Source: Bacteroidia bacterium (GTDB taxonomy: Bacteria; Bacteroidota; Bacteroidia; SpSt-205). Taken from it: a stretch of DNA of 64,000 bases. Shown here one piece after another: positions 15,968 through 32,442 of this stretch; position 1 is the stretch's first letter; every line of letters begins with the position of its first letter. The stretch covers positions 48,396 through 112,395 of the forward strand of contig JBCNVG010000013.1 of assembly GCA_039630325.1 (NCBI GenBank). Direction: 5' to 3'. The notes beneath the pieces are model-generated. The model made no database searches. It was not told the DNA's origin and was given only the letters and a program-made list of their open reading frames with translations. Made by a program: the position numbers and the translations under genes.

Positions 15968-16822
15968 ATGAAATCCATCCTACATCTTACGGACTTTTCA
16001 GAAGTCGCCCAGAATGCATACGCTTATGCTATAGCGATTGCCAAAAAGTACGGTGCTGAGCTGCATGTTGCCCATATCTATGATCGACCATATGCAAGTA
16101 TCGCTTATCAAGGAGGCCTATCCGCTGTGGTAGATGCTGAAATGGATGCTAAAATCCGCCGTGAACTTCTCAAACATTTAGAGAGTTATGTCACCTCTGC
16201 TCCATCCGATGGAGTGCGAGTGCTAATGCATTTATGGGGCGATCAGACTGTTTGGCGACCAGACCAGTACTTGAACAAGGTCCCAGGGACAGAGCTGATA
16301 GTGATGGGTACTCGCGGTGCCACAAGCTTATGGCATGGAGGGCTATTCGGAACAAATACAGCTCGCCTCATTCGGCACAGTCCTGTACCAGTTCTTGCAG
16401 TTCACGCGAAAAACACCTATACCGACTACCAAAAAGTCTTACTGCCCATAGATATTTTTGATGAGGCCACTATACCGCTGCTTCAAGCTGCGCTGCAGTT
16501 TTTGCATCCATGGCCGAATGCAAAGTTCATCCTCTTAGTGATTAACACGCCATATGTTTTCTACGACACCCCCTCCATAGATAAGTTCCTGGAAGAGGTC
16601 AAAGAGAAAGTCAGACGCCCCAACATAGAACTTCGGGTATATAATGATATCTCCGTAGAAGAAGGACTGCGACAAGCCATGGATGCAGAAAAAGCCGACC
16701 TCCTCGTGATGGGAACCCACGCTCGCAAAGGGCTGGCTCAGCTTCTATTTGGAAGCATCACCGAAAATGTAGCTCAGCATTTAGAATATCCTCTATTAGC
16801 TTTTCCTTTGAGTAAAAGCTGA
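15968..16822 (+). CDS. Universal stress protein, tandem UspA domains
   Basis: Two USP repeats (ILHLTDFSEVAQNAYAYAIAIAKKYGAELHVAH ... LLVMGTHARKGLAQLLFGSITENV). Confidence 0.8.
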   Translation: MKSILHLTDFSEVAQNAYAYAIAIAKKYGAELHVAHIYDRPYASIAYQGGLSAVVDAEMDAKIRRELLKHLESYVTSAPSDGVRVLMHLWGDQTVWRPDQYLNKVPGTELIVMGTRGATSLWHGGLFGTNTARLIRHSPVPVLAVHAKNTYTDYQKVLLPIDIFDEATIPLLQAALQFLHPWPNAKFILLVINTPYVFYDTPSIDKFLEEVKEKVRRPNIELRVYNDISVEEGLRQAMDAEKADLLVMGTHARKGLAQLLFGSITENVAQHLEYPLLAFPLSKS

Positions 16823-16895: not shown

Positions 16896-16950
16896 CCCAA
16901 ATAGCTACGGGGGTGCGTCTGCACCCCCGTAGCTATTTGGGAAAGATTTT
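16896..16950. terminator. Bidirectional rho-independent terminator (perfect 21-bp stem, 4-nt loop) between convergent genes
   Basis: cccaaatagctacgggggtgc-gtct-gcacccccgtagctatttggg followed by aaagattttt. It lies between the stop of the USP gene and the stop of the giant minus-strand gene. Confidence 0.6.
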
Positions 16951-16957
16951 TGCTTGC

Positions 16958-19900
16958 TCAGGGGACAAGTTTGAGTAGCTTGAGAGATATTTCCTCGCCA
17001 TCCTTGAAAAACTGAAGAGTGTAGATACCCGTTGCCCAGGAGCGAACATCTATCTGGACTTCGTGAAATCCAGCGGAATAACTCTGCGGTGTGATGTAAG
17101 AGACCAACGCACCCTTGGCATCATATACCCTCACCTCGACATACTTCTCCTCGGATAGACTAAACTGCACTGTGAGAAGCTCCGTCACTGGATTAGGGAA
17201 GGCCCTGACCAGCTCCTGGATAGGCCCTGAGACCTCTCGAGGGAATCTAACTTCTGCTAAGTTACTGTACGCCACCTCCCCTCCCAAGTGTTCGCTCACT
17301 ACTCGGTAGAGGTTAGTTTGCTCGAAGCTAGGGAAGCTGTCTATCCAACTAAATGAGGTGGATCCTTGAACGGGATATCTGTATACCTCCACCCACCCCG
17401 TATCCACACGCTTCTGCAAAAGCGCATACTGGATGGGGACATTCGTTTGCCATAAGAGGCGAATATGAGCCTCGGGCGTCGGATAAGCGGCCAATACACT
17501 TTGTATAGCAGGGAGGGGTGAGCAGTTAGTGACATTTACAGTCTGCTGGACAGTATCAGGGCAAGCACCAGGAGCACTCACCACCATAGTTATCGTCTTC
17601 GTGCCTGGTGTACTCCAAGTGCAAGATTGGGAACCGCCAGAACTCCAGGTTGAGCCATTATCACAGCTCCACTGGACATTCCCGCCAATCACTGGTGAAC
17701 TGGAATAAACCTGAAACTCCCCGAAAGTAGGAGCATTTGCCGCCTGCACATCAAATTCTAACCGCCATAGATGCGCAAAAATAACCTGGGTCTCCGTGAA
17801 AATGCCGCTGTCGTAGACATAACTACCTGGGGTAAAGGAGAAAGTTTTGGCCAACTTCCATCCCGAACCGTCATTGTAATAAAGACGAGCCCGTCTCGGA
17901 AGGCGCTGGGCCGCATTTGGACAGGACTGGCATGCCCAGAATACGATTCTATTCACGCTGCGCGGTATAGGGTACCGCCACATGGCCCATTGAGTGCTGG
18001 CTCCTGGGTTATTGGCTGTCCAGGCGGTACCGTTTTGATAGATACCATCTCCAAGCTGAGCAAAGTTAGCTGTTTGGACAGAGGAAAAAGTGAGCTGACT
18101 CATGTTGGGGACAGTTCCATGGATACCGAATCCAGTGATTAGGGTACCGAAGCTCGGTTGGCTCGGCCCTGAAACGAGGGTTTGATTGGTAAAGGTTACT
18201 GGCTGTCCTGTGCAATAAGGAATAGGGCTAATAGAAAACTGCCCATCTATCCGAGGCAGAGCAATAGCGGCTATCGGCACTCGCTCTGCGGAGCAGGAAT
18301 TTTCCACCCAATATAGCTGAGACTGCGTCAGAGATGATATGACGAGGGTAGGCGTATTTGAAGCGATAGGTGTCCCGCTAGAAGGGGTGAGATACCAGTT
18401 AGAGGGAACGCCGGCTTGGAGCGTGAGGGAGCTCCCTGCACATACGGCGGTATCTTTTTCCTGAGCTAAAAAGTTGGTCGTGTATGCCGTTGCCGCCCCA
18501 TCATAAGGTCCGCCAGCGATGGGAAGAGGACATCCTGATAGAACTATCTGCGTTGCCGCCCCATCATGCGGCCCCCCCACATAACTAAAAGTCGGACAAC
18601 TCGCTAACACCACCCCACTCGCAGACCCATCATAGGGACCTCCCGCAATTGGCATCGGGCAGCTCGCTACAATCACCTGCGTCGCAGACCCATCATACGG
18701 ACCTCCTACATAACTAAATGTCGGACAGCTCGCTAACACCACCCCACTCGCTGACCCATCATAGGGACCTCCGGCGTACGGAAGCTCAGGAAGGGGACAG
18801 TTTATTATCGCAGCGACGGCAGCCCCATCATAAGGACCACCAGTGTATTCCGTGATATCCCAACAAATAGCCCCTACAAACGCTGTCGCCGCCCCATCAT
18901 ACGGCCCCCCTGCATAGCTCAGTGTCGGACAGTTCGCAAGGAGTACTTCACTCGCAGACCCATCATACGGCCCGCCAGCAATCGGCATCGGACAACTTGC
19001 CACAATCACCTGCGTCGCAGAGCCATCATACGGACCGCCTACATAACTAAAAGTAGGACAGCTAGCTACCACCACTTCCGTAGCAGACCCATCATACGGC
19101 CCACCCGCAATCGGCATCGGACAGCTCGCCACAATCACCTGCGTCGCAGACCCATCATATGGGCCCCCTATATAACTCAATGTAGAACAACTAGCCAAAA
19201 CTACCGCCGTAGCTGAGCCGTCATAGGGACCACCAGCTCTTGCAGGCCATATCACATCAAACTCTATGCAGAAGGTAGAGTCGCATAAAGTGCCATTTGT
19301 CACCGTAACGCATACACGCTTTCGCCCCGGTATAGTGTAGCTCACAGGAGGAGGTACAGGGCCGCTATAGTCTATTTGCGAGGCGCCACACCCAGCACTG
19401 CCATTTGCACAGAAGTTCCAGTAAATATTTGCCCCCGTTCCATTTACAGTATCTACATAAGTGGGCGAAAAGGTAATAGGAATCCCAAGCCAAACTGGTG
19501 AAGGAGGACTCATGGTAACACTCACCCCTGGCATCGGATAGATGATCAAGTAGCGACATGCTGTATCCGCCTGGGTACCATTACTCACCCGCAGACATAC
19601 CAAGTATGTATCTGCCACTGTATAAGTATGTTGCGGCTGAAAATGGGTAGAAGTATTTCCATCCCCAAATAGCCAATAGTACTGAATCCCAGGACCCACT
19701 GAGGAATAGTTTAGAAACTGGATGGACTGTCCTGAGCAAGAGCCTACAAAATCAAAGTTAGCTCTTGGTCTATCAGGATCAGGCGGAATGCACGTTTGCT
19801 GGATAGGATTTGCTGTAACATGCACAGTGATATCTCCTGTGGCCCATTCCGGCATCACGACTTGTATCCAGAAACTTTTGAGCGGAGGGCGGCATTTCAG

Positions 19901-22900
19901 ATGCAGCGTAACATACGTCCCCTCAGCGACACACTCCTCCTGGTTCATGGTGTTACAATCCCCCGTAAGTACCCGATAGAGCACCTGACTACCCAAGGCA
20001 GTTGTATTTTCCACGATCTGCACGTCAAAATCCATCGTATCAGGCGTGAGGTTATTCACGAGCACCCAGGCAGACTTCTTCCCTACAGGGGTGCCAAAAC
20101 ATGCCATGATTGTGTCGGCCTCTCCAGCACCTTCACCGATAGTGAGGCAGTTTATGAGCAGATTGGTAGAATACGGCCCCCCCGCAGCAGCCACAGATAT
20201 AGTCACGGAGTCTTGACAGAAATCCCCTGGATGCCTTTGGAGCCATATGCGGGGGACCACTAATCCGAGATGATTACACCCTGTGAACATAATATAGTAC
20301 CGCCCTGGCCGAATACATCCTCTACCCCAATAGCGGTATCCCAAAGTAGGATGCGTCTCCCACACCCCCGTCAGAGGAACCCGAACCAACCCAGTGGAAG
20401 AGGAATCGCCAGGTACAGCTTGATAATAAAGCTGTATATCATCGGGATGGTAGTTATACTGATTCACGCCAGGACGGTCATAGTTGAGAAAGACATAGCC
20501 TGTGATTGCTGATTCAAAAGCATACCAAATGGTTCGAGTTCCGCAAGCATTTTGGTCTGTGGGGTCTTTGGTAGCACAGGTAAGGTCTCCTTGACAGCCC
20601 GTGTAGGTACCAGCTGAAAGTGCCGCCCAGGTGTAAGGCAAGTCACATTGAGTAGTCGGATTAGCAACTATGACATTAGCCTCAGAATAGTGGTCGTAGT
20701 TTACGCCCCCTCCCGGCAAAGGTTCCAAACGCACTCCAACTTCCACCTGTATATTCGGTTCTTTACCACAGGTATTACGATACACTACTACGTAATATCG
20801 CTTTGGAGGCTTGCAGGCATCTCGTTGAAAGCTCACAGTAGTGTACTGGTCACAACACCACCACCAACCTTGCGAAGAGGCAACCAATGTGAGTCCATTA
20901 GCTATTGTTGAATCCACACTCGTCGGGAATGCCCCCGGAGGGTCATCGCTTTCATACACAGCAAACGCCGGCTGCCATCCCGTACCAGGGGTCTGAGCAT
21001 AAACACTGACATGTACGCGAACATTGCCCCCGGCTACGAAAGTATACCACAGATTACGACGCCGATCAGGTAGGGTCGTGGGGGGAGAAGCAGAACCAGG
21101 GTTGGTATTAACTACCCCCAGAGGACAGTTGGCAGAGGGATCTGTGCTGAAGGCGTCTGTAGTGCAGAAAATAAAGTCTGTACTCCCAGGCCGCCCGTAA
21201 GGTCCCAGGGGATCTCCTGGTCGGGTTCTATACTCCGTATTGTCTGGGGGAAGCGTGCCAAAATCATACGCATGAACAGCGTAATTATGCAGAGAATACC
21301 CTACCGAGTCCACATAGATAGTCGGCGTGTAAGTGGATCCGATACACCCATCACCTGCAAAAGTTACCAGGGTATAAGTCCCAGGTGGCACCCAGCATAT
21401 GCGCCCAGTACCCGAGAAACAATCATGAATAATGGTGTAAGGGGGAGCGTTGGCTGTAATGTCACCCTGATACAGGCGAGAAGAGCCATAGCAACCATTC
21501 TGATAGATGACGAGGTAACTGGGACGAGTAACAGAAAATACCCGATAGCTCACTCTATTCTGGCCTCCGCTACACGGGGTGATGCCAGAAGGAAAAGGTA
21601 AATTATTAGCACAGCCCCAAAACTCCCAATCCAGTGTATAGCTACGATGCTGATTAGGTGCGTAGACATAGTGAGGTACCCAGTCTAAGTTGCCAGGTCG
21701 GTCAGCCGTGGCAAAGGTGCCGAACTTCTGAACCCTCGGATCACGAGAGATAGTAAACCATATGCGATTTCCTATGGCCCCGCCCCTTCCGCTGGTATAT
21801 GAAGGGTTAGTGTATGTACCTCCCACCGCATATGCTACGAAAGTGTACCAGCCAGGCTCCATACACACTGTATATCCCCCATGACAGTCCATGAAGAGAG
21901 AAGTAAGGGTATTATTACTTATCCGTCCCCGAAAGGTTCGCCAACCGGTAACGCCCAGCTCTGGCCAGGCTACATAGGCATACTGCGGAGAGAAGGTTAC
22001 CAAGCTCGGTTCAGCGATATAAACTTCCCAATAAAACTGCTTAGTGGCACCGCCACACGGAGCATACCCTAAGATGGTTAGAGGATTATCATGGCAAGTA
22101 ACACGAGTCCAAGTCGCCGTCAAAGAGTGCGTAGCCCCCCCTATCGTCCCAACCTCCTCCACATTCGGACGGGGATCCGGATTCCCCGGCAGGCTCACAG
22201 GGGCTGTGGGGGTGTAAAATCGCCGCTCTCCAGGCGGGAATACATGAAAGCGAAACCATGGACGATCCCTTTCCCCAATGTCCGAGTCGTCACCAAAGCT
22301 TACCAAGGTATAGTAGCCAGGAGTTACACACACCTTGACAGGGTAGTAAAGGTCCTGACACCCCACCTGGTCAATCAAGTTCTGAATACGACCTCCTACA
22401 ATAGGTTCTACACGAGCATCCCCGCGGTAGAGCCTATACCTAAATCGCCACCAGTTCCCCCCACCCACTTCTAAAATCCCCTCTTGATCTACTCGGATAA
22501 TCCGATAAATAGCGCGATTATTACCTCCACCGCATACATCCCCAGCTGGTAGAACGGTGGTTCGGCAGTCTAAGGTATCCCACTGAGCGTAGTAAGTTAC
22601 CCCCGGAGTCAGGGGAAGTCCATTATTGATAGAGTCAGCTTCTTGAGGACGGATGTGAAGACCGAAATTCTGCTCAGGCGTGGAGCCTAACTGTACATGG
22701 AAACTAACGGGCAACCCCATAGCAGAATAAGGTGACCTGCAAGCCCCCCACAGAGCTGAACGATTGATGCGAGCCAGCACCTGTACGGTATAAGTTCCAG
22801 CTGTGAGACAATTCACCCACCCATCATTATCCACGACGGCTTTGAGAGGGAGATTGCATCCATTTATCGCGGGCGTGCCTTCAAAAACCCTAAATCGCAC

Positions 22901-24151
22901 CGTACCCATGCAGTACCACCAATCCCAGGGCCAGGGATAAGAGTACCAAAATCGCACATGCGCCGCCCCTGTCAGAGTAAACGTGTAGTACAGGGCTAAA
23001 TCAAAATCTCCTATTGTATCATCTGGGGTAACGGCACTACCAAAGGTGCCACAGGGATTATCAACGATACGGCTCTGACATCCCCAAAAGTCGCTGACTG
23101 TAAAAGTTGGACCAAAGGATAAAGTTCCTAAGTGATGAGTGCCTGGAATACTAAGGGGATTGTAGGATATCGCAGCTTGGCTACCGCGCTCATACAAGCG
23201 CAACCGAACCCTATTGGCGTAATTGGTACGCCCTAAAATTTTTATGGAATAATAGGTATTCGGCTGAAGCTGACACAACCTGTCATAACGAGCACCCGTA
23301 CTGCTATTGTTCTGAACCATGGGAATGCAGCCTTGGATGAGTGTCAGGCCGGCTGCCGAGTCAGTTAGCGCATTGCCCTGGTAGATGAAGAGCCGCCATT
23401 CCCTTGGGGAGGGATTAGAACTATTCCAAGGGTCCTCCATGAGCTCTATACCTACCCAATCCACATAAGCGTCGGTTCGGAATACATGCCATGTGGATTT
23501 ACTCCAGCTTGAGTCATTATCACAAATCGTCTCACCTTGACTCACAGACTGACAAGCGTAGTCAAAAGTGACATCCTTGAGCAAAACGGAACTTGCAGAA
23601 GTATTAAGGACCCCGAGGTTTTGAGCTGTGGCCATATGGTCATATTCCGCCTCCGCTCCTGCACTGATTGAGGGAGCGGATACGATCAGTTCTAAAAATA
23701 TTTGACCACTGACTGCAAGGTTAGCTCCCACCTGCACCATATACCAGCCCCGTTGAAGGCAGGCGTGTGTGTATCCCTCCATGAGGACTATGGGCGGGTC
23801 TACCCGTTGAGCTGGACCGGGTAAGCAGGTATTGCCCCGATAAAGTGTCCAACCCACATGCGTAGGGTCAATAGAATTCCCCACTTGTCGAAGGATGATG
23901 CGTACTGTCCGCGTCGTGGGTAGGTAGAAACGATACCATACACTTTTTCCATTCGGAACTCCAGGGGGAATATACTCACCCGCTTGGAGTGTAGCATTAG
24001 TGATATTTACGGTATCGCTGTAGAAAGTACCCACCCCATATGGACTATGCGGATTGCCGAAAGCGACGAAGGATCCATTAGCGCAGTTATCGTTCGAGGG
24101 GGGCTGGGCAAGTACTATGCTTACCCAGCCTATGACCCACACATGGCGCAT
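16958..24151 (-). CDS. Giant secreted cell-surface protein (2397 aa) with T9SS C-terminal sorting domain, PKD and F5/8-type-C (discoidin)-like domains, and an internal tandem-repeat array
   Basis: N-terminal signal peptide. The C-terminal about 80 aa match the Por secretion tail (PNPVTELLTVQFSLSEEKYVEVRVYDAKGALV...GIYTLQFFKDGEEISLKLLKLVP). A PKD-like motif (YYWLFGDGNTSTHFQPQHTYTVADTYLVCLRVSNG) and a discoidin-like block (WAMWRYPIPRSVNRIVFWACQ...) are present. About 12 GGPYDG repeats are also present. Confidence 0.85.
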   Translation of the reverse strand: MRHVWVIGWVSIVLAQPPSNDNCANGSFVAFGNPHSPYGVGTFYSDTVNITNATLQAGEYIPPGVPNGKSVWYRFYLPTTRTVRIILRQVGNSIDPTHVGWTLYRGNTCLPGPAQRVDPPIVLMEGYTHACLQRGWYMVQVGANLAVSGQIFLELIVSAPSISAGAEAEYDHMATAQNLGVLNTSASSVLLKDVTFDYACQSVSQGETICDNDSSWSKSTWHVFRTDAYVDWVGIELMEDPWNSSNPSPREWRLFIYQGNALTDSAAGLTLIQGCIPMVQNNSSTGARYDRLCQLQPNTYYSIKILGRTNYANRVRLRLYERGSQAAISYNPLSIPGTHHLGTLSFGPTFTVSDFWGCQSRIVDNPCGTFGSAVTPDDTIGDFDLALYYTFTLTGAAHVRFWYSYPWPWDWWYCMGTVRFRVFEGTPAINGCNLPLKAVVDNDGWVNCLTAGTYTVQVLARINRSALWGACRSPYSAMGLPVSFHVQLGSTPEQNFGLHIRPQEADSINNGLPLTPGVTYYAQWDTLDCRTTVLPAGDVCGGGNNRAIYRIIRVDQEGILEVGGGNWWRFRYRLYRGDARVEPIVGGRIQNLIDQVGCQDLYYPVKVCVTPGYYTLVSFGDDSDIGERDRPWFRFHVFPPGERRFYTPTAPVSLPGNPDPRPNVEEVGTIGGATHSLTATWTRVTCHDNPLTILGYAPCGGATKQFYWEVYIAEPSLVTFSPQYAYVAWPELGVTGWRTFRGRISNNTLTSLFMDCHGGYTVCMEPGWYTFVAYAVGGTYTNPSYTSGRGGAIGNRIWFTISRDPRVQKFGTFATADRPGNLDWVPHYVYAPNQHRSYTLDWEFWGCANNLPFPSGITPCSGGQNRVSYRVFSVTRPSYLVIYQNGCYGSSRLYQGDITANAPPYTIIHDCFSGTGRICWVPPGTYTLVTFAGDGCIGSTYTPTIYVDSVGYSLHNYAVHAYDFGTLPPDNTEYRTRPGDPLGPYGRPGSTDFIFCTTDAFSTDPSANCPLGVVNTNPGSASPPTTLPDRRRNLWYTFVAGGNVRVHVSVYAQTPGTGWQPAFAVYESDDPPGAFPTSVDSTIANGLTLVASSQGWWWCCDQYTTVSFQRDACKPPKRYYVVVYRNTCGKEPNIQVEVGVRLEPLPGGGVNYDHYSEANVIVANPTTQCDLPYTWAALSAGTYTGCQGDLTCATKDPTDQNACGTRTIWYAFESAITGYVFLNYDRPGVNQYNYHPDDIQLYYQAVPGDSSSTGLVRVPLTGVWETHPTLGYRYWGRGCIRPGRYYIMFTGCNHLGLVVPRIWLQRHPGDFCQDSVTISVAAAGGPYSTNLLINCLTIGEGAGEADTIMACFGTPVGKKSAWVLVNNLTPDTMDFDVQIVENTTALGSQVLYRVLTGDCNTMNQEECVAEGTYVTLHLKCRPPLKSFWIQVVMPEWATGDITVHVTANPIQQTCIPPDPDRPRANFDFVGSCSGQSIQFLNYSSVGPGIQYYWLFGDGNTSTHFQPQHTYTVADTYLVCLRVSNGTQADTACRYLIIYPMPGVSVTMSPPSPVWLGIPITFSPTYVDTVNGTGANIYWNFCANGSAGCGASQIDYSGPVPPPVSYTIPGRKRVCVTVTNGTLCDSTFCIEFDVIWPARAGGPYDGSATAVVLASCSTLSYIGGPYDGSATQVIVASCPMPIAGGPYDGSATEVVVASCPTFSYVGGPYDGSATQVIVASCPMPIAGGPYDGSASEVLLANCPTLSYAGGPYDGAATAFVGAICWDITEYTGGPYDGAAVAAIINCPLPELPYAGGPYDGSASGVVLASCPTFSYVGGPYDGSATQVIVASCPMPIAGGPYDGSASGVVLASCPTFSYVGGPHDGAATQIVLSGCPLPIAGGPYDGAATAYTTNFLAQEKDTAVCAGSSLTLQAGVPSNWYLTPSSGTPIASNTPTLVISSLTQSQLYWVENSCSAERVPIAAIALPRIDGQFSISPIPYCTGQPVTFTNQTLVSGPSQPSFGTLITGFGIHGTVPNMSQLTFSSVQTANFAQLGDGIYQNGTAWTANNPGASTQWAMWRYPIPRSVNRIVFWACQSCPNAAQRLPRRARLYYNDGSGWKLAKTFSFTPGSYVYDSGIFTETQVIFAHLWRLEFDVQAANAPTFGEFQVYSSSPVIGGNVQWSCDNGSTWSSGGSQSCTWSTPGTKTITMVVSAPGACPDTVQQTVNVTNCSPLPAIQSVLAAYPTPEAHIRLLWQTNVPIQYALLQKRVDTGWVEVYRYPVQGSTSFSWIDSFPSFEQTNLYRVVSEHLGGEVAYSNLAEVRFPREVSGPIQELVRAFPNPVTELLTVQFSLSEEKYVEVRVYDAKGALVSYITPQSYSAGFHEVQIDVRSWATGIYTLQFFKDGEEISLKLLKLVP
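18481..19248 (-). repeat. In-frame tandem repeat array (about 12 units of 63-66 nt, i.e. 21-22 aa) inside the giant gene
   Basis: The DNA motif gacccatcatacggacc recurs about every 60-70 nt. It encodes GGPYDGSATQVIVASCPMPIA alternating with GGPYDGSASGVVLASCPTFSYV. Several units are identical at the protein level. Confidence 0.8.
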
Positions 24152-24186: not shown

Positions 24187-25689
24187 TTATCGGGCACCTC
24201 GGCCACCAACATGGTGATGTCTATGAGAAGGATTGCGATTATTTGAACACCCATGGTTAGGGAACGAGCAGTTCCGAGCGGAAACCCTATGCTCGCGCCA
24301 GTCATTACCCCATGAGCCTCCTCTGAGCCCAAATCCCGCAGGGTTTCCTAAGGGCCAGGAGGGTTGATTAGCCGCTCCGGTCCCCCAATCCAACACTCCG
24401 TCTCCCCAATTGCCTGTATAAGTAGGCGAGCCTACTGTCCCATCGGGTGCCGAAACCATTACCACCATCTCCCACACGTTTCCGCTCATATCCATAACTC
24501 CATAGTACGAGGCGCCGCTGGCTTCCCTATTGGGAGAACCTGGCTTAGCATGAATCCCCACCCGAACAGGTCCTTGGCCGCCATCTCCACCACTGTAGTT
24601 CCCCCCAATCCACCCCGTACAGTTAGCATTTGAGGGAGCACTAAAAACCTCGGTTCCGTTTTCCGGTGTAATGCTCAAAGTAGTGCCGAAATTAATGTTC
24701 GTAGAGCCCCATGCATATTCCCCCCTAACTTCAGGGAGCGCCCCCCTGCATATTTTCTCGTATTCCATTTCCGTGATAGGGCGTAGAGCCGCCCAATCCA
24801 GATAAGCACAGAGATCATGCCAGGATAGGTAGTTTTGTGCTCTATCCTCTCTATCAGAAAAGTACTGAGAGGGATAGACCCCAGTATTAGCTAACCTGTT
24901 ACGATAGCTATTGAATGACCCTAAATATCTTAGTGAGGCGGCACCTGCGGGTAAAGTGTTCAAAAAAGCTGCATACTGACCTTGCGATATTTCATATTTC
25001 ATTACGTGGAAAGCCTTATAACCCTTCGGGAAACTGGTAGGAACATTTATGGAAGTAGAGCCTGAACCAGCCCATTTGAGAGAAATAGCTGCTTCTGAGG
25101 TAATGTTATAGGGTATGTGAGGATTACCACTATTCCCATTCTGATCAAAAGCACGGGCTGCTTCATCGCTCCAATCATGCCACCCATCTAAAGTACCTAA
25201 GACGTAAGCTCCCTCGGGTATAAACACCATCTCTATCCCAAAAATCCTAAAGTCATACTGTCCAGTCGTAGGCAAATTCGTTACCTTAAGAGTAACGCTG
25301 TGAGGTCCGAATGTCGCATAGGTACCCGCATTTGCCGGGCGGAGCATGATGCCCAGATTATTCGGCGCAGGATCTACCCCTACTCCACTCCCATCAGCTA
25401 AAACTGGCTCTAACGCGGCGGGTATCGTGTGATCGCTCAGCGTTGTACTTATCTGTCCATGAGTCCATGGGTCAACAAACTGATTACACGCCCTAAACTT
25501 TACAAAAATCCAAACGGCATCCCAGTTAGCTGGGGGTGTGGTGAGACGCCAGGCATTCTGCCAGCTTACTTGAAAGGAAACGGTCTGGTTAGCTTGGTTT
25601 ACAGTAAAATTCGTTATTTGCAGGTTATTCGCCAGCAGAGAAAGGCTACTCAGTAGCCCGACAGCTATATAGTAGCAGCTCCGTGTCAT
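24187..25689 (-). CDS. Secreted FGE-sulfatase (SUMF1/EgtB/PvdO) domain protein with an N-terminal beta-rich extension
   Basis: Signal peptide (MTRSCYYIAVGLLSSLSLLA). The FGE-domain motifs are IEMVFIPEGAYVLG, YEISQGQYAAFL, GNVWEM and RGGSWGNDW. It lies 35 bp upstream of the giant T9SS cargo gene in the same direction. Confidence 0.75.
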   Translation of the reverse strand: MTRSCYYIAVGLLSSLSLLANNLQITNFTVNQANQTVSFQVSWQNAWRLTTPPANWDAVWIFVKFRACNQFVDPWTHGQISTTLSDHTIPAALEPVLADGSGVGVDPAPNNLGIMLRPANAGTYATFGPHSVTLKVTNLPTTGQYDFRIFGIEMVFIPEGAYVLGTLDGWHDWSDEAARAFDQNGNSGNPHIPYNITSEAAISLKWAGSGSTSINVPTSFPKGYKAFHVMKYEISQGQYAAFLNTLPAGAASLRYLGSFNSYRNRLANTGVYPSQYFSDREDRAQNYLSWHDLCAYLDWAALRPITEMEYEKICRGALPEVRGEYAWGSTNINFGTTLSITPENGTEVFSAPSNANCTGWIGGNYSGGDGGQGPVRVGIHAKPGSPNREASGASYYGVMDMSGNVWEMVVMVSAPDGTVGSPTYTGNWGDGVLDWGTGAANQPSWPLGNPAGFGLRGGSWGNDWREHRVSARNCSFPNHGCSNNRNPSHRHHHVGGRGAR

Positions 25690-25814
25690 ATCAATGCAAA
25701 CCTAAGATAGAAAATGTACTTCGGCGAAACCACATTTTTACCCTTGGTAAACAACTTGAAGTTCATATTATCTTTACAAGATCAGCACATGACTCAGAAA
25801 CAGGTAAACAAATG

Positions 25815-27239
25815 GGACGACTTCAAAGATACCTACGAAGCCTCACCCCTTCAGAATGGGAATCGCTTTACACCGAAGCCCAGAAGGAACTAAGAGGTCA
25901 CAAGATGCGCTCCCTACTGGAGCGTTTACGCCGCACCAGCGCCCCCCAAGTTCTAAACCCAACGGAAAAAGAACTCGCTAAACGCATAGAGCGTTGGATA
26001 TGGAAGCATGCCTTTATTCAGGCGCACAAGTCTCATCCCATATACGCTTCCCCTCCGATAGAATGGATTAGTAAAGGGGCTCTCCTCTATCATGCCAAGG
26101 GATTGTCCACAGATGCCCTTGCCTTACTGCGCGGTGAGGTCCATTTACCCCTGGAAAAATTGACACTCCTTTTCCTCAGACTCAAAATTCAAATAGAATC
26201 CGGCGCCGCTAAGAAGGCATCTAAAACTCTGAGGGAAATAGAGCACATCAGCGACCATTTGAGAAGATCTATCCAGCGCGAACGGCTCCAGCTTACCCTT
26301 TGGCGTCTCCTAAATGAATATGGGGGCTCCTACACTGAAATCGGTCAGCGCTTTTTGAGAAGATTAGAAAAGCACCCTTATTGGAAGCACACTCATGGTA
26401 CAGCCTCAGAAGAGAGTGTGGCAGATACTAACCTTCGGATATTATATGCCTTAGCGAAAGGAAACCCCATGGAAGCATATAAGCTGTGCCTTGATAAAAC
26501 CGCTCAATCCCATCCCAGCATCCTCCTCAACCGATGGCTATGTAGTATCATGCTAAAACATCCTCTAAGTGAATATCTATCCTACGACACCTTGTATACA
26601 ACCAAGCTCTCAGAATATGACAAAGCCACTCTCTTAAATCGCGTACTCTTAACCCTCCTGATTTACGGGTCGCCAGCTTACTTGACCTCTAAGCTATCTC
26701 TATTGGAGCATTGGTATTTGAGCTCCGGTTTCCTTCCAGAAAATGGTCTCGTGTGGCTACAACTGCTTTGGCTCTGCGGAAAGTCTGAAGAAGCTATCAA
26801 GCTATCAGAGAACCTATTAGAGAAAGTAGAAGGCAAACCCTTCACTTACATTCAAGTGGCACTTATGCTTCTGTTGATTTATGCTGAAAATCACAAATGG
26901 AATAAGCTCGTACAACATCTTCGGAGATTGCTTTACTGGCTAAAGAGAGTAGAGAAGTTCATCGCTTCAGCACCCGTAATGCATAAACTGCTCAGGCAGC
27001 TCTATCAGGCTCGATTGCGCCCACAGGTCCTTTCAGCAGTGGCTGAGAGGTGGAAAAAACATCTTGCCTCATACCCTACCGAACGCTACTTCTGGGAAAT
27101 TACCCTATTACCAGATTGGATTGAAGCCCGTCTCAGCCATCAAGGAATCATCGGATATCGCCAAAACGCCCACCGGGCTTCAGTCACCGATCTTGAAGCT
27201 TTGATTCAAAAAGCAACCCGGGTATTTCCTCCCTTGTGA
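25815..27239 (+). CDS. Hypothetical alpha-helical protein
   Basis: Long ORF with good coding character but no recognisable motif. The start is set at MGRLQRY (25815) because the track start at 25683 would overlap the divergent FGE gene start. Confidence 0.4.
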   Translation, partial: GRLQRYLRSLTPSEWESLYTEAQKELRGHKMRSLLERLRRTSAPQVLNPTEKELAKRIERWIWKHAFIQAHKSHPIYASPPIEWISKGALLYHAKGLSTDALALLRGEVHLPLEKLTLLFLRLKIQIESGAAKKASKTLREIEHISDHLRRSIQRERLQLTLWRLLNEYGGSYTEIGQRFLRRLEKHPYWKHTHGTASEESVADTNLRILYALAKGNPMEAYKLCLDKTAQSHPSILLNRWLCSIMLKHPLSEYLSYDTLYTTKLSEYDKATLLNRVLLTLLIYGSPAYLTSKLSLLEHWYLSSGFLPENGLVWLQLLWLCGKSEEAIKLSENLLEKVEGKPFTYIQVALMLLLIYAENHKWNKLVQHLRRLLYWLKRVEKFIASAPVMHKLLRQLYQARLRPQVLSAVAERWKKHLASYPTERYFWEITLLPDWIEARLSHQGIIGYRQNAHRASVTDLEALIQKATRVFPPL

Positions 27240-27385: not shown

Positions 27386-30352
27386 TTGCGTCTCATGAAG
27401 AGTGTTTTGCTTTTCGTAGGAACTGTACTGCCCCTTTTAGCCCAAGAAATTCTTCTGAGAAGGGTTCAGAAAGCTTCAAATCCAGCTTCTCAAACTCCTC
27501 CAGTTGAGAGCCAAGCCCCCCTTTATCTCAAAGGAAAAGTGGTTGACGCAAATACTCGCGAACCCCTAATGGGAGCGTATATTAGAATTCCTGGCAGTGT
27601 CGTGGGAGCTATAACCGATTCTCACGGGGAGTTTCGTATCCCCACGACTCTCACAAGCCCAATATCAGTAGAGGTTCAATACCTCGGATATCAGACGCAG
27701 CAGGTACTCCTCCATCCAGCAAAAGAAAATGCTGCTTCAACTGAGATTGCTCTAAAAGAAGAAGAAATCGTTGGTCAAGAGGTGGTAATCTCAGCTTCTC
27801 GGATAGAAGAGCAATTCATGAAAACCCCTGTCCAAATCGCTCAGCTATCAAGCTTGGCGCTACGAACAAGTCCCAGCCTCCTATCAGCTCAAACTTTATC
27901 CTTTCTACCTGGGATAGATGTGGTGCACACCAGTCTTACCTTCCCGGTGGTAAATAGTAGGGGGTTCAACTTTACTCAGAATCCTCGCTTCATCAACCGC
28001 GTAGATGGAATAGAAATGCAATCTACAGCTCTAAATGTACCTGTTCTCACCTTCACAGCACCTCCTGAAATAGATATAGCGAATGTAGAAGTAGTCGCTG
28101 GCCCTGCTTCTGCTCTATACGGCCCCAATGCGTTCAATGGAGCGATGATAACGACCCTAAAAGACCCTTTCCAATATCCAGGCCTGTCTGCCCATGTGAG
28201 ATTAGGTATAAACCACGTAGGAAACTCTCAACGAGGTAACGCAGCCCCTTTATATGACTTTCAAGCTCGATATGCTCGGAGTTGGAATAATCGACTGGGT
28301 GTCAAGGTGGCTTTACATGGACTTTCAGGAGAGGATTGGTGGGCCACAGACCGTTCCGATCGCGGCATATATGCTGGTGCGTCCTATCCCTACGACATAC
28401 CTGGGCCCCATAACCCTGGCTATGTACCTCTCAACGGATATGGGTATGATGCCCGAGTACTTTTACGCAACTTTCCTTTGCCCTTCTTCGATGGCACTCG
28501 CATGCCTGACTTCTATCTGAGTCGGACAGGCTACATGGAAACCGAGTTGGTCTCTAACAAAGTTCAAATTGCGAAGATTACGGGGGGCCTATTTTACCGG
28601 TTTTCTGACCAGCTCATGGGTCAGCTAACCTTTCATGTAGCGAATGGCCGCACCGTTTATCAAGCTAATACCCGATATTCTTTAGAAAACTTTCTTTTCC
28701 ATGCCTATAAAGCGGAAATAACCCACTCCAGGGGATTTTTACGGCTTTATACGATACAGGAGAATGGAGGACGCTCTATACCTCTTGGCCTCTTAGGGGT
28801 GAATCTTCTGCAAGCTGTCAAACCGCATTCGGACTGGTTTCCGCAGTATTTAGTCACCTATGCAGGTTTCTTAGATGGAATGATCTCTGCCCAAGACCGA
28901 GCGGCGTTTGAAGCCTACTATGGCCGTCCTGTTCCACAAATGGGAGATCACGCAGGGGCTCGATGGCTTGCGGACAGCGACACCCGGTTTTTAGCGACCC
29001 TTCCGTCTGCGGCTCCGGTAGTAGCTATCCTTGGCGGACGATGGGATGTAGGGCGAGCCCGTCCTGCCCCCAATAGCCCTGAACTGCGCCGCCTTGTAGA
29101 TTCTCTGAGTCGCATACCCATCACGCAAGGAGGGGCTCTCCTTGTAGATAGGTGCGCCTTACATCACGCAGAAGCTCAGTATGAGTTGCCCTCTATTTGG
29201 AATCTGCAAACCGTAGTTGGTGGCAGCTTCCGTCTATTTGAGATAAACTCTCGCGGCACCATTTTTGCTGATACCCTCGGAAGGCCCATTTACAACTGGG
29301 AAACCGGGGCTTACATTCAAACTCGGCGCCACCTTTGGGATGAGAGGCTTCAACTCACCCTGGGGCTACGATATGATTACAGACAATATTTGATTGGACA
29401 AATCACTCCTCGCACTGCCCTCAGTTGGAGCTGGGACCGAAAGAATAACCACATTCTCCGTCTGACCTATCAAATGGGCTTTCGTAATCCAACAAGTGAA
29501 GCCCTATTTATCCATCTCCAAACAGATGCCCTCCTGATCGGAGCGCTTCCTCAAACAGATAGAGCGTTGGGCATCGCAGGATTGAATAACTACACCAAGT
29601 CGTCCGTAGAAGCTTTTCGAGCGGCTCGAGCCCAAGGTGTCCCAATCGATGAAGCTGCGAAGCTCCTTCGCAGCCTCCCCATAAATGGTATTCGGCCCGA
29701 AAAAGTCCAGAGTTTAGAAGTAGGCTCACGCCATCTTCTTTTTGACCAGAAACTTCTCATAGATGTAACTTACGCTTATCAGCGATATAGAGATTTTCAT
29801 GGAAACGTCCGAATATATGGGCCAGCCGATAAGGTCAGCCAACTTTCACCGCAAGATGTTGAAAATGATCGTCTTTCTCCCCTCTATGGTCGTTACTTCA
29901 ACATTCCAGGAACCCCCCAAGCCCAGTTCTTTACTATTGCCCTCCAGTACCGAATCAACCGTTATCTCCTAGCCAATGCCAACTATACCTATGCCCAAGC
30001 TTGGGGATTAGAGGAGACAAAGAGTCTAGACCCTGGCCTAAACATGTTCTTCAACACCTCTCCTCATCGGGCCAATGCAGGTATCTGGATACAAAATCTG
30101 GGTCGCTGGAATGCCCAGTTATGGTATCAGTGGGTACATGCGTATCTTTTTGAGTTTCCCAACTATAAGGGTATTGTCCCGACTTACAACCTTCTCCATG
30201 CCCAGGTCAGTTATCGTCTGCCGCGATGGCATAGTGAAATACGGCTTGGGGCCCAAAACTTGTTGAACTTTTATCACATTCAGGTGCCTGGCGGCCCTCG
30301 CATCGGTGCTGTCTATTACATTCAGTACAGCTTTGATAGTTTGAGCCTGTGA
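27386..30352 (+). CDS. TonB-dependent outer-membrane receptor (carboxypeptidase-regulatory-like domain + plug + barrel)
   Basis: Signal peptide, then CarbopepD_reg signature (LKGKVVDANTREPLMGAYIRIPGSVVGAITDSHGEFRIP). Plug motifs follow (NSRGFN, VDGIEM, IANVEVVAGPASALYGPNAFNG), then a long beta-barrel region. Confidence 0.7.
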   Translation: MRLMKSVLLFVGTVLPLLAQEILLRRVQKASNPASQTPPVESQAPLYLKGKVVDANTREPLMGAYIRIPGSVVGAITDSHGEFRIPTTLTSPISVEVQYLGYQTQQVLLHPAKENAASTEIALKEEEIVGQEVVISASRIEEQFMKTPVQIAQLSSLALRTSPSLLSAQTLSFLPGIDVVHTSLTFPVVNSRGFNFTQNPRFINRVDGIEMQSTALNVPVLTFTAPPEIDIANVEVVAGPASALYGPNAFNGAMITTLKDPFQYPGLSAHVRLGINHVGNSQRGNAAPLYDFQARYARSWNNRLGVKVALHGLSGEDWWATDRSDRGIYAGASYPYDIPGPHNPGYVPLNGYGYDARVLLRNFPLPFFDGTRMPDFYLSRTGYMETELVSNKVQIAKITGGLFYRFSDQLMGQLTFHVANGRTVYQANTRYSLENFLFHAYKAEITHSRGFLRLYTIQENGGRSIPLGLLGVNLLQAVKPHSDWFPQYLVTYAGFLDGMISAQDRAAFEAYYGRPVPQMGDHAGARWLADSDTRFLATLPSAAPVVAILGGRWDVGRARPAPNSPELRRLVDSLSRIPITQGGALLVDRCALHHAEAQYELPSIWNLQTVVGGSFRLFEINSRGTIFADTLGRPIYNWETGAYIQTRRHLWDERLQLTLGLRYDYRQYLIGQITPRTALSWSWDRKNNHILRLTYQMGFRNPTSEALFIHLQTDALLIGALPQTDRALGIAGLNNYTKSSVEAFRAARAQGVPIDEAAKLLRSLPINGIRPEKVQSLEVGSRHLLFDQKLLIDVTYAYQRYRDFHGNVRIYGPADKVSQLSPQDVENDRLSPLYGRYFNIPGTPQAQFFTIALQYRINRYLLANANYTYAQAWGLEETKSLDPGLNMFFNTSPHRANAGIWIQNLGRWNAQLWYQWVHAYLFEFPNYKGIVPTYNLLHAQVSYRLPRWHSEIRLGAQNLLNFYHIQVPGGPRIGAVYYIQYSFDSLSL

Positions 30353-32442
30353 AAAAGGTATTTCTATATCTCACAGGGATAAGTATAGGATGGGGGGGGC
30401 CTTGCGAATCCTGTCAGGATGACGTTCTTTGTCTAAGTCGCTGCGCATATCAAGCCCTCTCTAATGCCCAGTCTAAGGAAGAGCTGCATGAGGCCACCCT
30501 TCTCTTGGCTTATAGCTGGCTTAGAGGTGATTTCGTGGAGGGGGTGCCTCGCCTGGTTTTCCCAGTTTTAGATGATCCGAAAGCCTCGGATTCCCTCCGC
30601 TTACAGGCCATATTGTTTTTAGCTCAAGCGCATTACAAGCTGGGACGACTCGACTCAGCAACTGTGTGGTATGAGCGAATAATTGAACGCAGCCAAGCTT
30701 ATCCTTTTCTAAAAGCACGAGCGCATTTGGGGTTAGCTGCCCTCTTAGCCAAGCGCAATCTCATGCAGGCTCTTAGCCAAGCGTCGGAAGCCAGCGAGAT
30801 CGCTGACCGAATCCAGTATCCTCTCCTGGTCGCTGTTGCTTACACCCAGTTAGCCTATCTCATGGCAGAGCAACGCAACCGGTCCCTCGCTCTTCAATAT
30901 GCTGAAAAAGCCGTTCAGGCCGCTCAAGTCGCACTTGATCAAAATCAACGCCACCTCCTTCTAAGCTCTCCGATGGAGACTTACCTAGCAGCGGTGGCTA
31001 ATTTAGCCTCATTATATGCTGAAGTCGGACGACAAAAAGAGGCGGAGTCGCTGTATCGTCGCATTTTATCTGAGGCTAAAAGCGATAGCCTTGCTATAGG
31101 CCAAGCTGTGATTGGATTAGCTTTACTTCACCTTCAAAATCGTTCATATGGAGAAGTAGAGCGCCTTCTGACATCTTATCATCCCCTTTTTAGCGCCTTG
31201 CCTTACGAACTTCGTAGGGAAGCCTTACGATTACAAGCCCAGCTTTACGTAGCCCAAAACCGCTTGGCCGCCGCTTTGTCTATCTATGAAAAGCTTTTAG
31301 AACAAGCCGAAACACAGGGCATGCAAGCACAGACCAATCGTATTGAGCAGCTTCGGACCTTAGCGGGCATAGAAGCTCAAGAAGCTCAACTGCGCAGTAT
31401 GGAGAATGCTCGCCGTAAAGAAAGGCTGCTGTACCTTAGCTTAGGAGGAATCGGAGTTCTGCTATTAGCTGTCATGGGATGGGCTACTTACATAGCCAGG
31501 AAACGAGCTTCTGAAGAGCGAAGCTTCCGAGATGTTATCGCTACTCAAGCTCAAAAGATACAAGAACAGACTCGGATGTTAGAGCAGCAAAATGCCGAGC
31601 TAATCCGAATCTCAGAGGTAATGACAGAGGCGCTGACCACAGTACAAGAATCTTACGCGGCCGCCCGACGGTTGCAAAGGGCTATCATGCCAGACATAGA
31701 AAAACTGATATCAGGTTCAGCCCTCTATTATCATCCCATGCAAGAAGTAAGTGGAGATTTTTATGTGCTTGCTTACGATCCCTCCACTGCACGCATTCTC
31801 GTCGCAGTTGGAGACGCAACCGGTCATGGAATCAGCGGAGCAATATTGGCGGGTATTTTTTCCTCTACCATACAAAATCTTTTTTATCGTAACCCTTCCC
31901 AATCTCCTCAATCTCTATTGAAGGGCCTACTAAAATCAATGCAAAGTTTTCTGAACTTAGATCCAGGGAGCAGAGCTGCTCCGTTGCGCGAGGGAGCAGA
32001 TTTAGCTGTTGGAATTGCTGACTTCCGCTATAAAAAACTGTATCTGGGATTAGCTGGAAGACCTGTTTGGCTACTCACACCAGAGGGATTGAAAGAGTTT
32101 GAAGGAGGGCGGCGTGGCATAGATAGTTACACGCCGCTTGATTACGAGTTTCGTGAGTATGAAGAGTCTTTGAATGAAGAGAGCTCTATTTTCCTTTTCA
32201 CAGATGGTATTTCTGATGCTCTTAGCCCAGATGGAAAGAAACTTGGTATCAAAGCTTTACGTGCTCAAGTAGAATCTGAAAGCTTTCTCACATCCACCGC
32301 AGGAGAGCAGCGAGATAAGATTGTTACTTTCCTGAATGAGTGGACCCAAGGAAGGCCTCCGAACGACGATGTCACTATGATTATTTTACCAATTCGATCA
32401 CTGTATGAATATGCCCAGGCTCGACTCTTGAAACAATCTTAG
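30349..32442 (+). CDS. TPR-repeat sensor fused to a PP2C/SpoIIE-family serine phosphatase, single TM
   Basis: N-terminal TPR region, a TM helix (LLYLSLGGIGVLLLAVMGWATYIA) and a C-terminal SpoIIE/PP2C domain (SGDFYVLAYD...VAVGDATGHGISGAILA...NDDVTMIIL). The GTG start overlaps the TonB-receptor stop (GTGA). Confidence 0.8.
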   Translation: MKKVFLYLTGISIGWGGPCESCQDDVLCLSRCAYQALSNAQSKEELHEATLLLAYSWLRGDFVEGVPRLVFPVLDDPKASDSLRLQAILFLAQAHYKLGRLDSATVWYERIIERSQAYPFLKARAHLGLAALLAKRNLMQALSQASEASEIADRIQYPLLVAVAYTQLAYLMAEQRNRSLALQYAEKAVQAAQVALDQNQRHLLLSSPMETYLAAVANLASLYAEVGRQKEAESLYRRILSEAKSDSLAIGQAVIGLALLHLQNRSYGEVERLLTSYHPLFSALPYELRREALRLQAQLYVAQNRLAAALSIYEKLLEQAETQGMQAQTNRIEQLRTLAGIEAQEAQLRSMENARRKERLLYLSLGGIGVLLLAVMGWATYIARKRASEERSFRDVIATQAQKIQEQTRMLEQQNAELIRISEVMTEALTTVQESYAAARRLQRAIMPDIEKLISGSALYYHPMQEVSGDFYVLAYDPSTARILVAVGDATGHGISGAILAGIFSSTIQNLFYRNPSQSPQSLLKGLLKSMQSFLNLDPGSRAAPLREGADLAVGIADFRYKKLYLGLAGRPVWLLTPEGLKEFEGGRRGIDSYTPLDYEFREYEESLNEESSIFLFTDGISDALSPDGKKLGIKALRAQVESESFLTSTAGEQRDKIVTFLNEWTQGRPPNDDVTMIILPIRSLYEYAQARLLKQS

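Follow-up and report, generated by a model that had tools for sequence, protein, structure and literature searches.

The longest open reading frame (ORF) of a 64,000 nt stretch of DNA from a Bacteroidia bacterium (GTDB lineage SpSt-205; GenBank assembly GCA_039630325.1, contig JBCNVG010000013.1, positions 48,396 to 112,395 of the forward strand; hereafter the window) encodes a 2397 aa protein, which we refer to as the giant protein (16958..24151, minus strand, ATG start). Our analysis showed that a tandem array of GGxxDG repeats within this protein is a separate unit, which at all informative loci is encoded beside a member of a secreted protein subfamily with the formylglycine-generating enzyme (FGE) fold, termed here the partner. 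The new elements are the row of nine divergent PPC-like modules that precedes the array, an uncurated repeat family and, above all, the strict pairing of that repeat with the FGE-fold subfamily, of which no description was found in Pfam, NCBIfam or the searchable literature. We give an even chance to the interpretation that the giant protein is a surface-anchored binding rod, whose probably beta-solenoid array docks with, or is matured by, the partner. A preliminary description of the window had identified this gene as its largest, and both the ORF and the main features noted in it were confirmed as real.

The array (18452..19234, minus strand; aa 1640-1900) was delineated by a regex motif scan and TRF. 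The roughly 12 tandem GGPYDG units of the preliminary description proved to be exactly 12 GGP[YH]DG motifs, located at aa 1640-1880, in units of 21-23 aa. The motifs are spaced 22, 21, 22, 21, 22, 23, 23, 22, 21, 22 and 21 residues apart, a layout of (22,21)x2 + 22 + 23 + 23 + (22,21)x2, and the array is visible at the DNA level as a tandem repeat with periods of 63-66 and 129 bp. One Cys per unit had also been claimed, and this held for units 1-11, each of which carries a single Cys at position 15-16. It did not extend to the 12th unit, as the sole Cys after that motif lies 25 residues on, at the start of the following Ig_7 domain. The centre of the array, comprising two 23 aa units, is fixed amongst orthologs (loci L006-L032), and the flanking (22,21) aa super-units vary in number; three units of the giant array are identical. 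The combination of variable copy number and identical units suggests ongoing unequal recombination.

The repeat had been described as matching no recognized family, and the database searches agreed. No Pfam or NCBIfam model reached threshold on the array. The nearest model, DUF7930, fell short of its cut-off (25.2 against 27 bits), with 14 of 75 profile positions matched and none of the stretches significant by itself, and the searchable literature held nothing on DUF7930 or on GGPYDG, GGSYDG or GGNNDG repeats. A word-indexed homology search with the array returned two proteins, and the orthologs were not among them, a likely consequence of candidate ranking or bias filtering. An exhaustive search of 1.84 billion representative proteins with a two-unit profile identified 193 clusters at E<=1e-3, 63 of them at E<=1e-10. 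Most members are 200-700 aa in length and are mostly small type IX secretion system (T9SS) cargo proteins, a typical example consisting of a signal peptide, 5-13 repeats, a beta domain and a sorting domain. The Por_Secre_tail sorting domain was found in 64 of 101 small repeat proteins, none of which had a Pfam model on the repeat (0/101) or matched DUF7930 at E<=1e-3 (0/101). Across the family the unit spans ~20-28 residues, a short hydrophobic strand coming after GGxxDG. Motif variants run from GGPYDG and GGSYDG to GGNNDG, Cys is present in ~57% of units, and G, G, D and G are the only near-invariant positions. This ~22-residue GGxxDG repeat, for which there is no curated model, represents a new family. 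One larger member, the 1359 aa T9SS protein P0048, showed a near-threshold Pfam match to APOBEC2 / AID-like deaminases at aa 827-875 (26.6 against 26.8 bits), and may carry a secreted deaminase toxin domain.

The pairing was evident in every set of genomes that we inspected. Partner genes, between one and three in number and on the same strand, lie directly upstream at 24 of 24 GTDB giant loci with an array and available upstream sequence, compared with 0 of 12 array-less relatives of the giant protein. A sample of metagenome contigs, drawn by a degenerate DNA pattern that samples arrays of 22 aa period only, contained a partner gene at all eight informative giant loci and at all informative non-giant loci. 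The pairing extends to proteins otherwise unrelated to the giant protein: a partner gene lies upstream of the small repeat proteins P0031, P0034, P0037 and P0096, and a partner-type gene lies immediately downstream of the genes for the Cys-less GGNNDG proteins P0061 and P0080. The products of these two downstream genes have no Pfam annotation and matched a hidden Markov model of 42 upstream partners at E 1e-85 and 1e-78. In the reverse direction, an array gene adjoins both of two partner homologs picked arbitrarily on long contigs. Altogether, all array-bearing genes with sufficient flanking sequence, 34 for giant proteins and 11 for unrelated small ones, have a partner gene beside them, and the pairing occurs in both gene orders and with at least 11 otherwise unrelated non-giant proteins. 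Because array-less relatives do not have the partner and unrelated repeat proteins do, the association follows the repeat, not the PPC-like modules. At loci L016-L025, L030-L032, L044, L062, L082 and L097, a single array gene has two or three tandem partner paralogs upstream of it.

This distribution bears directly on the simplest alternative, in which the array is a mere spacer in an ordinary large adhesin and the FGE-fold gene owes its position to something other than the repeat, for example shared regulation or genomic hitch-hiking. Spacers of variable-copy, low-complexity repeats are common in surface proteins, the copy number here ranges from 5 to 18, and an interaction between array and partner is something we infer from sequence. 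However, the adjacency tracks the repeat, whichever gene comes first, over at least 11 proteins that are otherwise unrelated and is absent from the 12 array-less homologs, and many cassette proteins consist of essentially nothing but repeat and export signals. We therefore consider a coincidental neighbour very improbable.

The partner gene (24187..25689, minus strand) encodes 500 aa and ends 35 nt upstream of the giant gene; a terminator-like scan found no site in this gap. In the protein, a signal peptide and a beta-rich N-terminal domain (aa ~20-220) precede an FGE-sulfatase fold (aa 225-472), which was identified by Pfam PF03781 at 47.1 bits against a cut-off of 23.3. Searches of PDB sequences gave weak matches (E 1e-4) to true FGEs, and PorK was not among them. 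The partner shares the FGE-sulfatase fold and the scaffold motifs of PF03781, a family that includes the non-enzymatic PorK, GldK and GldJ, and retains the motifs SW.D..AYLDWA.LRP.TE.EYEK.CRG and YYGVM.MSGNVWE. Like PorK and GldK, it occurs in a T9SS context. In contrast to enzymes of the family, it does not have the catalytic, copper-binding Cys pair: amongst 42 syntenic orthologs there is no conserved Cys after the RGGS motif. The lone well-conserved Cys in these 42 proteins is Cys68, in the N-terminal domain, which contains no second conserved Cys. The public names of the partner family, 'formylglycine-generating enzyme' and 'SUMF1/EgtB/PvdO family nonheme iron enzyme', are generic and cover at least 2257 clusters. 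Given that the catalytic cysteines are missing and that there is no sulfatase gene amongst the neighbouring ORFs scanned, these names are probably wrong.

An enzymatic role for the partner nevertheless constitutes the main rival to a docking or assembly role. In this scenario the partner would modify each repeat unit in the periplasm, by oxidizing or cross-linking the per-unit Cys or by acting on the Tyr of GGxYDG or the invariant Asp. The array would thus offer many substrate sites, and the function of the surface protein would come from the modified form. The FGE fold is best known from enzymes that act on short peptide motifs, as the public names reflect, and the signal peptide of the partner would place it in the compartment crossed by the cargo. 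Strict adjacency in both directions, the presence of one to three tandem partner paralogs per locus and the single Cys at a fixed position in array units 1-11 are also consistent with a dedicated modifying enzyme. Set against this are the unconserved Cys pair, the absence from the partner of a DinB-type iron domain as in EgtB, and the absence from the array of a (C/S)x(P/A)xR motif of the CxPxR type, the sole occurrence of which in the giant protein is CSAER at aa 1953. In addition, GGNNDG arrays without Cys still have a partner from this subfamily, which means that cysteine is not a universal target, and the near-invariant unit positions are G, G, D and G only. In view of the unconserved Cys pair, the missing CxPxR motif and the Cys-less arrays, a true FGE acting on the repeat cysteines was rejected as a candidate, and we regard repeat modification in the wider sense as rather unlikely.

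The structural members of the FGE family suggest a different role. PorK has the fold of a sulfatase-modifying enzyme and GldK is disulfide-bonded to SprF and PorG, and FGE-fold proteins thus play a structural, disulfide-forming part in the T9SS and gliding machinery (PMC12635249). The giant protein could be a gliding-motility adhesin of the SprB/RemA kind, with the partner as a GldJ/GldK-like adaptor to the moving periplasmic track. GldJ, GldK and PorK all have the FGE fold, the outer-membrane partners to which GldK is disulfide-linked carry adhesins (PMC12635249), and the lone conserved Cys of the partner would suit such a linkage. The most distant members of the giant family have an SprB-like type B CHU_C sorting domain, and one is labelled 'gliding motility-associated-like' by JGI. 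However, GldJ and GldK were rejected as identities of the partner: NCBIfam, including the GldJ and GldK models, gave no match at E<=0.01, no lipoprotein Cys follows the signal peptide, and PDB sequences gave no match to PorK. The partner also differs from these proteins in having an N-terminal domain of its own, with the lone conserved Cys. Furthermore, the giant protein itself has a type A and not a type B sorting domain, no SprB repeats were found in it, no PorP/SprF-like gene was seen beside its gene, and the same cassette occurs with proteins of 250-550 aa that contain little beyond the repeat. We infer that a GldJ/GldK-like motility adaptor and a coincidental neighbour are both less likely than a repeat-modifying enzyme, and judge the motility adaptor improbable.

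Returning to the docking of array and partner, we asked what structure the array might adopt. The AlphaFold2 model of aa 1540-1970 shows two short strands per array unit at moderate confidence (pLDDT 48-79). The repeats of P0037 match the Pfam models Beta_helix (E 3e-11) and NosD (E 1e-12); neither model (PF13229, PF05048) matched the giant array. Most Foldseek matches of the array model were to PKD structures and came from the flanking domain; one weak alignment was to the pectate lyase PelI. PDB sequence searches with the array and with P0037 found no structure. On the basis of three weak indications, the P0037 matches, the PelI alignment and the ~22-residue period, the array is probably a beta-solenoid. 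It resembles parallel beta-helices (PbH1, Beta_helix, NosD) and the RTX beta-roll in its ~22-residue period, its Gly-rich, Asp-containing turn and its short strands; the RTX motif, GGxGxD, differs from GGxxDG.

The other part of the giant protein without a curated counterpart is its N-terminal region. No Pfam or NCBIfam model matched aa 1-1470 at E<=1. The enrichment of this region in Trp, Tyr, Cys and Gly was reproduced: aa 1-1450 contain 3.1% W, 6.0% Y, 3.1% C and 9.8% G. About eight diverged beta-sandwich modules, possibly PPC-like, had been proposed. The repeated modules proved to be present and number nine, in tandem at 19802..24103 on the minus strand (aa 17-1450): M1 at aa 17-162, M2 at 163-325, M3 at 326-490, M4 at 491-640, M5 at 641-805, M6 at 806-950, M7 at 951-1145, M8 at 1146-1308 and M9 at 1309-1450. 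Every module opens with an (N/Y)D(N/H)xxxA-type segment and bears [WY]Y.F and G.Y[TY].V motifs. The alignment of orthologs was split into the nine segments and profiles were compared by hhalign, giving a probability of at least 80% in 17 of 36 pairs and a network that links all nine modules. The strongest links were M4-M6 (98.6%), M4-M5 (97.9%), M3-M5 (97.0%) and M2-M3 (96.9%), followed by M1-M8 (94.7%), M7-M8 (94.1%) and M1-M9 (93.8%). All 27 negative controls, in which modules were compared with the PKD, discoidin and C-terminal regions, gave 5.1% or less.

The expectation that the modules would fold in structure prediction was supported by an AlphaFold2 model of aa 17-640, built from 26 sequences, which was all-beta with a mean pLDDT of 88.4 and a pTM of 0.73. 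The model covers modules 1-4, and modules 5-9 were placed via their profile links. Foldseek with the whole model retrieved multi-domain jelly-roll proteins at low TM-scores, as expected for a four-domain query. As modelled, the N-terminal modules have the fold of solved PPC and collagen-binding domains, so the proposal that they are PPC-like stood at the level of predicted fold. It was not reproduced at the level of sequence: the PPC Pfam model PF04151 had no match at E<=1 on the whole giant protein, and the module 1 profile had none amongst PDB sequences. Taken together, the predictions show nine beta-sandwich modules, rich in disulfides, with the collagenase collagen-binding / PPC fold. The modules differ in several respects from the collagen-binding domains of ColG and ColH and from PPC domains, which are ~110 aa in length. 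They are 142-195 aa long with 3-6 cysteines each, nine of them stand in a row at the N-terminus of a T9SS cargo protein without a protease domain, and each is conserved one-to-one between orthologs. We suggest that they constitute a cysteine-rich, divergent branch of the PPC / collagen-binding fold, one that escapes detection by sequence models.

The giant protein is a predicted Sec-exported cargo with a type A T9SS sorting domain. The predicted Sec signal peptide, read from the sequence, occupies aa 1-16 (MRHVWVIGWVSIVLA, followed by QPP; 24104..24151, minus strand), and giant orthologs have equivalent hydrophobic N-termini that end in AQ. At the other end, the Por/T9SS sorting domain of the preliminary description (16961..17200, minus strand; aa 2318-2397) was recovered by Pfam Por_Secre_tail PF18962 at aa 2318-2390 (42.5 bits, cut-off 27) and by NCBIfam TIGR04183 (31.6 bits, cut-off 23). 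A PKD-like block had been noted as well, and two such domains precede the array. The first (19547..19774, minus strand; aa ~1460-1535) was matched by Pfam PKD_4 at 47.4 bits and PKD at 41.8 bits (models PF00801 and PF18911), the match at 47.4 bits covering aa 1472-1531 against a cut-off of 27. The second, additional PKD fold (19247..19534, minus strand; aa 1540-1635) was recognized from an AlphaFold2 model (pLDDT 77-92) for which Foldseek found the PKD domains of PrtV and ColG at target TM-scores of 0.74-0.79, the value of 0.79 being to 4l9d, the PrtV PKD domain.

The array is followed by an Ig_7 (CHU_C-associated Ig-like) domain (18254..18457, minus strand; aa 1899-1966; Pfam PF19081, 32.8 bits, cut-off 27.3). 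The F5/8-type-C-like block that had been proposed beyond it corresponds to aa ~1975-2150 (17702..18229, minus strand). The giant copy itself has no Pfam match at E<=0.1, and a profile search of PDB sequences with the region found none. Of 13 orthologous segments, however, six match F5_F8_type_C_2 and five F5_F8_type_C, with a best E-value of 7e-7, and the segment is best described as a divergent discoidin-like domain. Between this domain and the sorting domain lie a PKD-like segment (aa ~2151-2210), a region with weak PKD_4 matches in orthologs, and a beta domain (aa ~2215-2310), together at 17222..17701 on the minus strand with approximate boundaries. Reading of sequences and consensus by eye indicated that this beta domain is common to the small repeat-bearing T9SS proteins.

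Many large surface proteins exported by the T9SS combine PKD, Ig and discoidin domains, and the PPC fold is already known. The giant protein resembles other large multi-domain T9SS cargo of the Bacteroidota in its predicted signal peptide and its Por_Secre_tail, PKD and Ig_7 domains, and its size and modular beta architecture are also typical. It differs from them in that its N-terminal 1450 aa and its array lie outside any curated family, and in being co-encoded with a dedicated FGE-fold gene.

A search with the N-terminal 1468 aa found 30 proteins, every one from uncultured Bacteroidia and almost all of full length (~2200-2570 aa), and a scan of GTDB species representatives identified 49 loci. 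The first 624 residues of these align end to end at 27-90% identity. Represented among the loci are hot-spring Bacteroidia metagenome-assembled genomes (MAGs; closest, 90%), Marinilabiliales, Bacteroidales, Chitinophagaceae, Sphingobacteriales, Flavobacteriales and Saprospiraceae. Cysteines and aromatic residues of the N-terminal region are conserved column for column among orthologs, which, with the end-to-end alignment, indicates that the architecture is old and co-linear and is not that of a fast-shuffling repeat. Full length and module order are kept across the Bacteroidia in these 49 species-level genomes, which argues for a specific conserved role. An array is present in all giant orthologs with a type A sorting domain, its period being 20-25 aa and its copy number 5-18. 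The most distant family members, P0029 (L003, L004) and P0030 (L005), retain the nine N-terminal modules. Their C-terminal half is swapped for Ig-like repeats and a type B (CHU_C) sorting domain, and these two relatives have zero array units and no partner. Two diverged paralogs of the giant gene are present in each of two genomes, KatS3mg026 (L009, L013) and HK-STAS-BACT-47 (L014, L027), each with its own upstream partner gene.

With ~50% G+C and a content of housekeeping genes, the window is ordinary chromosomal DNA. A universal-stress-protein gene (15968-16822, plus strand) converges on the giant gene, and the terminator-like scan identified a hairpin with a 20 bp perfect stem (16896..16941) in between, just past the stop of the giant gene. 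This hairpin is probably a bidirectional terminator that closes the two-gene unit. On the other side, a 518 aa ORF (25683-27239, plus strand), divergent from the partner gene and with a called start that overlaps it, had no match in Pfam or NCBIfam. Beyond the cassette lie a SusC/TonB-dependent receptor-like gene (27386-30352, plus strand) and a TPR-SpoIIE phosphatase gene (30349-32442, plus strand); in L001 and L002, too, the orthologs are flanked by TonB-dependent receptor genes.

Our working model for the cassette combines these predicted properties. Type A cargo proteins have their sorting domain removed and are attached to the cell surface. By analogy with other such cargo, the sorting domain of the giant protein would be cut off and its C-terminal end fixed to the cell surface. 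The protein would then form a rod tens of nanometres long, with the array as a beta-solenoid-like stalk and the nine PPC-like modules at the distal end, where they could bind an insoluble polymer or another surface. Polymer binding by the ColG collagen-binding domain is calcium-dependent. No ligand or catalytic domain was found in the giant protein, and its architecture points to a putative role as an adhesin or carbohydrate-binding protein. The partner, given the missing copper-binding Cys pair, would probably be a dedicated binding, chaperoning or assembly factor for the array and not a formylglycine enzyme. Array and partner would meet in the periplasm before export, and a disulfide might form between Cys68 of the partner and the per-unit array cysteines. 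Suggestive of such a bond is the co-variation, resting on very few independent events, of Cys68 with the repeat Cys: Cys68 is missing from the partners of the two Cys-less arrays (P0061, P0080). It is also missing from the partner of P0096, in which the unit cysteines occupy a different position from those of other arrays.

Several observations weigh against this model. Within the giant family, the presence of array and partner follows phylogeny, and independence comes only from the ~11 non-giant proteins. The co-variation of Cys68 and repeat Cys amounts to about two independent losses, and P0096 is an exception to it, with Cys in most units but Ser at the Cys68 position of the partner. The confidence of the array model is moderate (pLDDT 48-79), and an antiparallel meander would give the same strand pattern as a solenoid. 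Although the partner carries a signal peptide, it has neither a sorting domain nor a lipobox by which it might stay with the exported cargo. An enzymatic role of the partner may operate through residues other than the FGE cysteines. Finally, all carriers are uncultured MAGs.

A more specific proposal, which we advance tentatively and consider somewhat doubtful, is that GGxxDG arrays and secreted FGE-fold partners make up a two-component module, not described before, in the T9SS cargo of Bacteroidota. The partner would then either be covalently joined to the array, its lone Cys pairing with the per-unit cysteines in the manner of GldK with SprF and PorG, or catalyse a novel modification of the repeats, and the giant protein would represent this module fused to a nine-domain rod. 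The small cassette proteins of 250-550 aa offer a tractable system for experimental work. The T9SS and gliding machinery has the FGE-fold proteins PorK, GldK and GldJ among its core structural components; a cargo-specific FGE-fold partner, if true, would extend the theme from the machine to its substrates.

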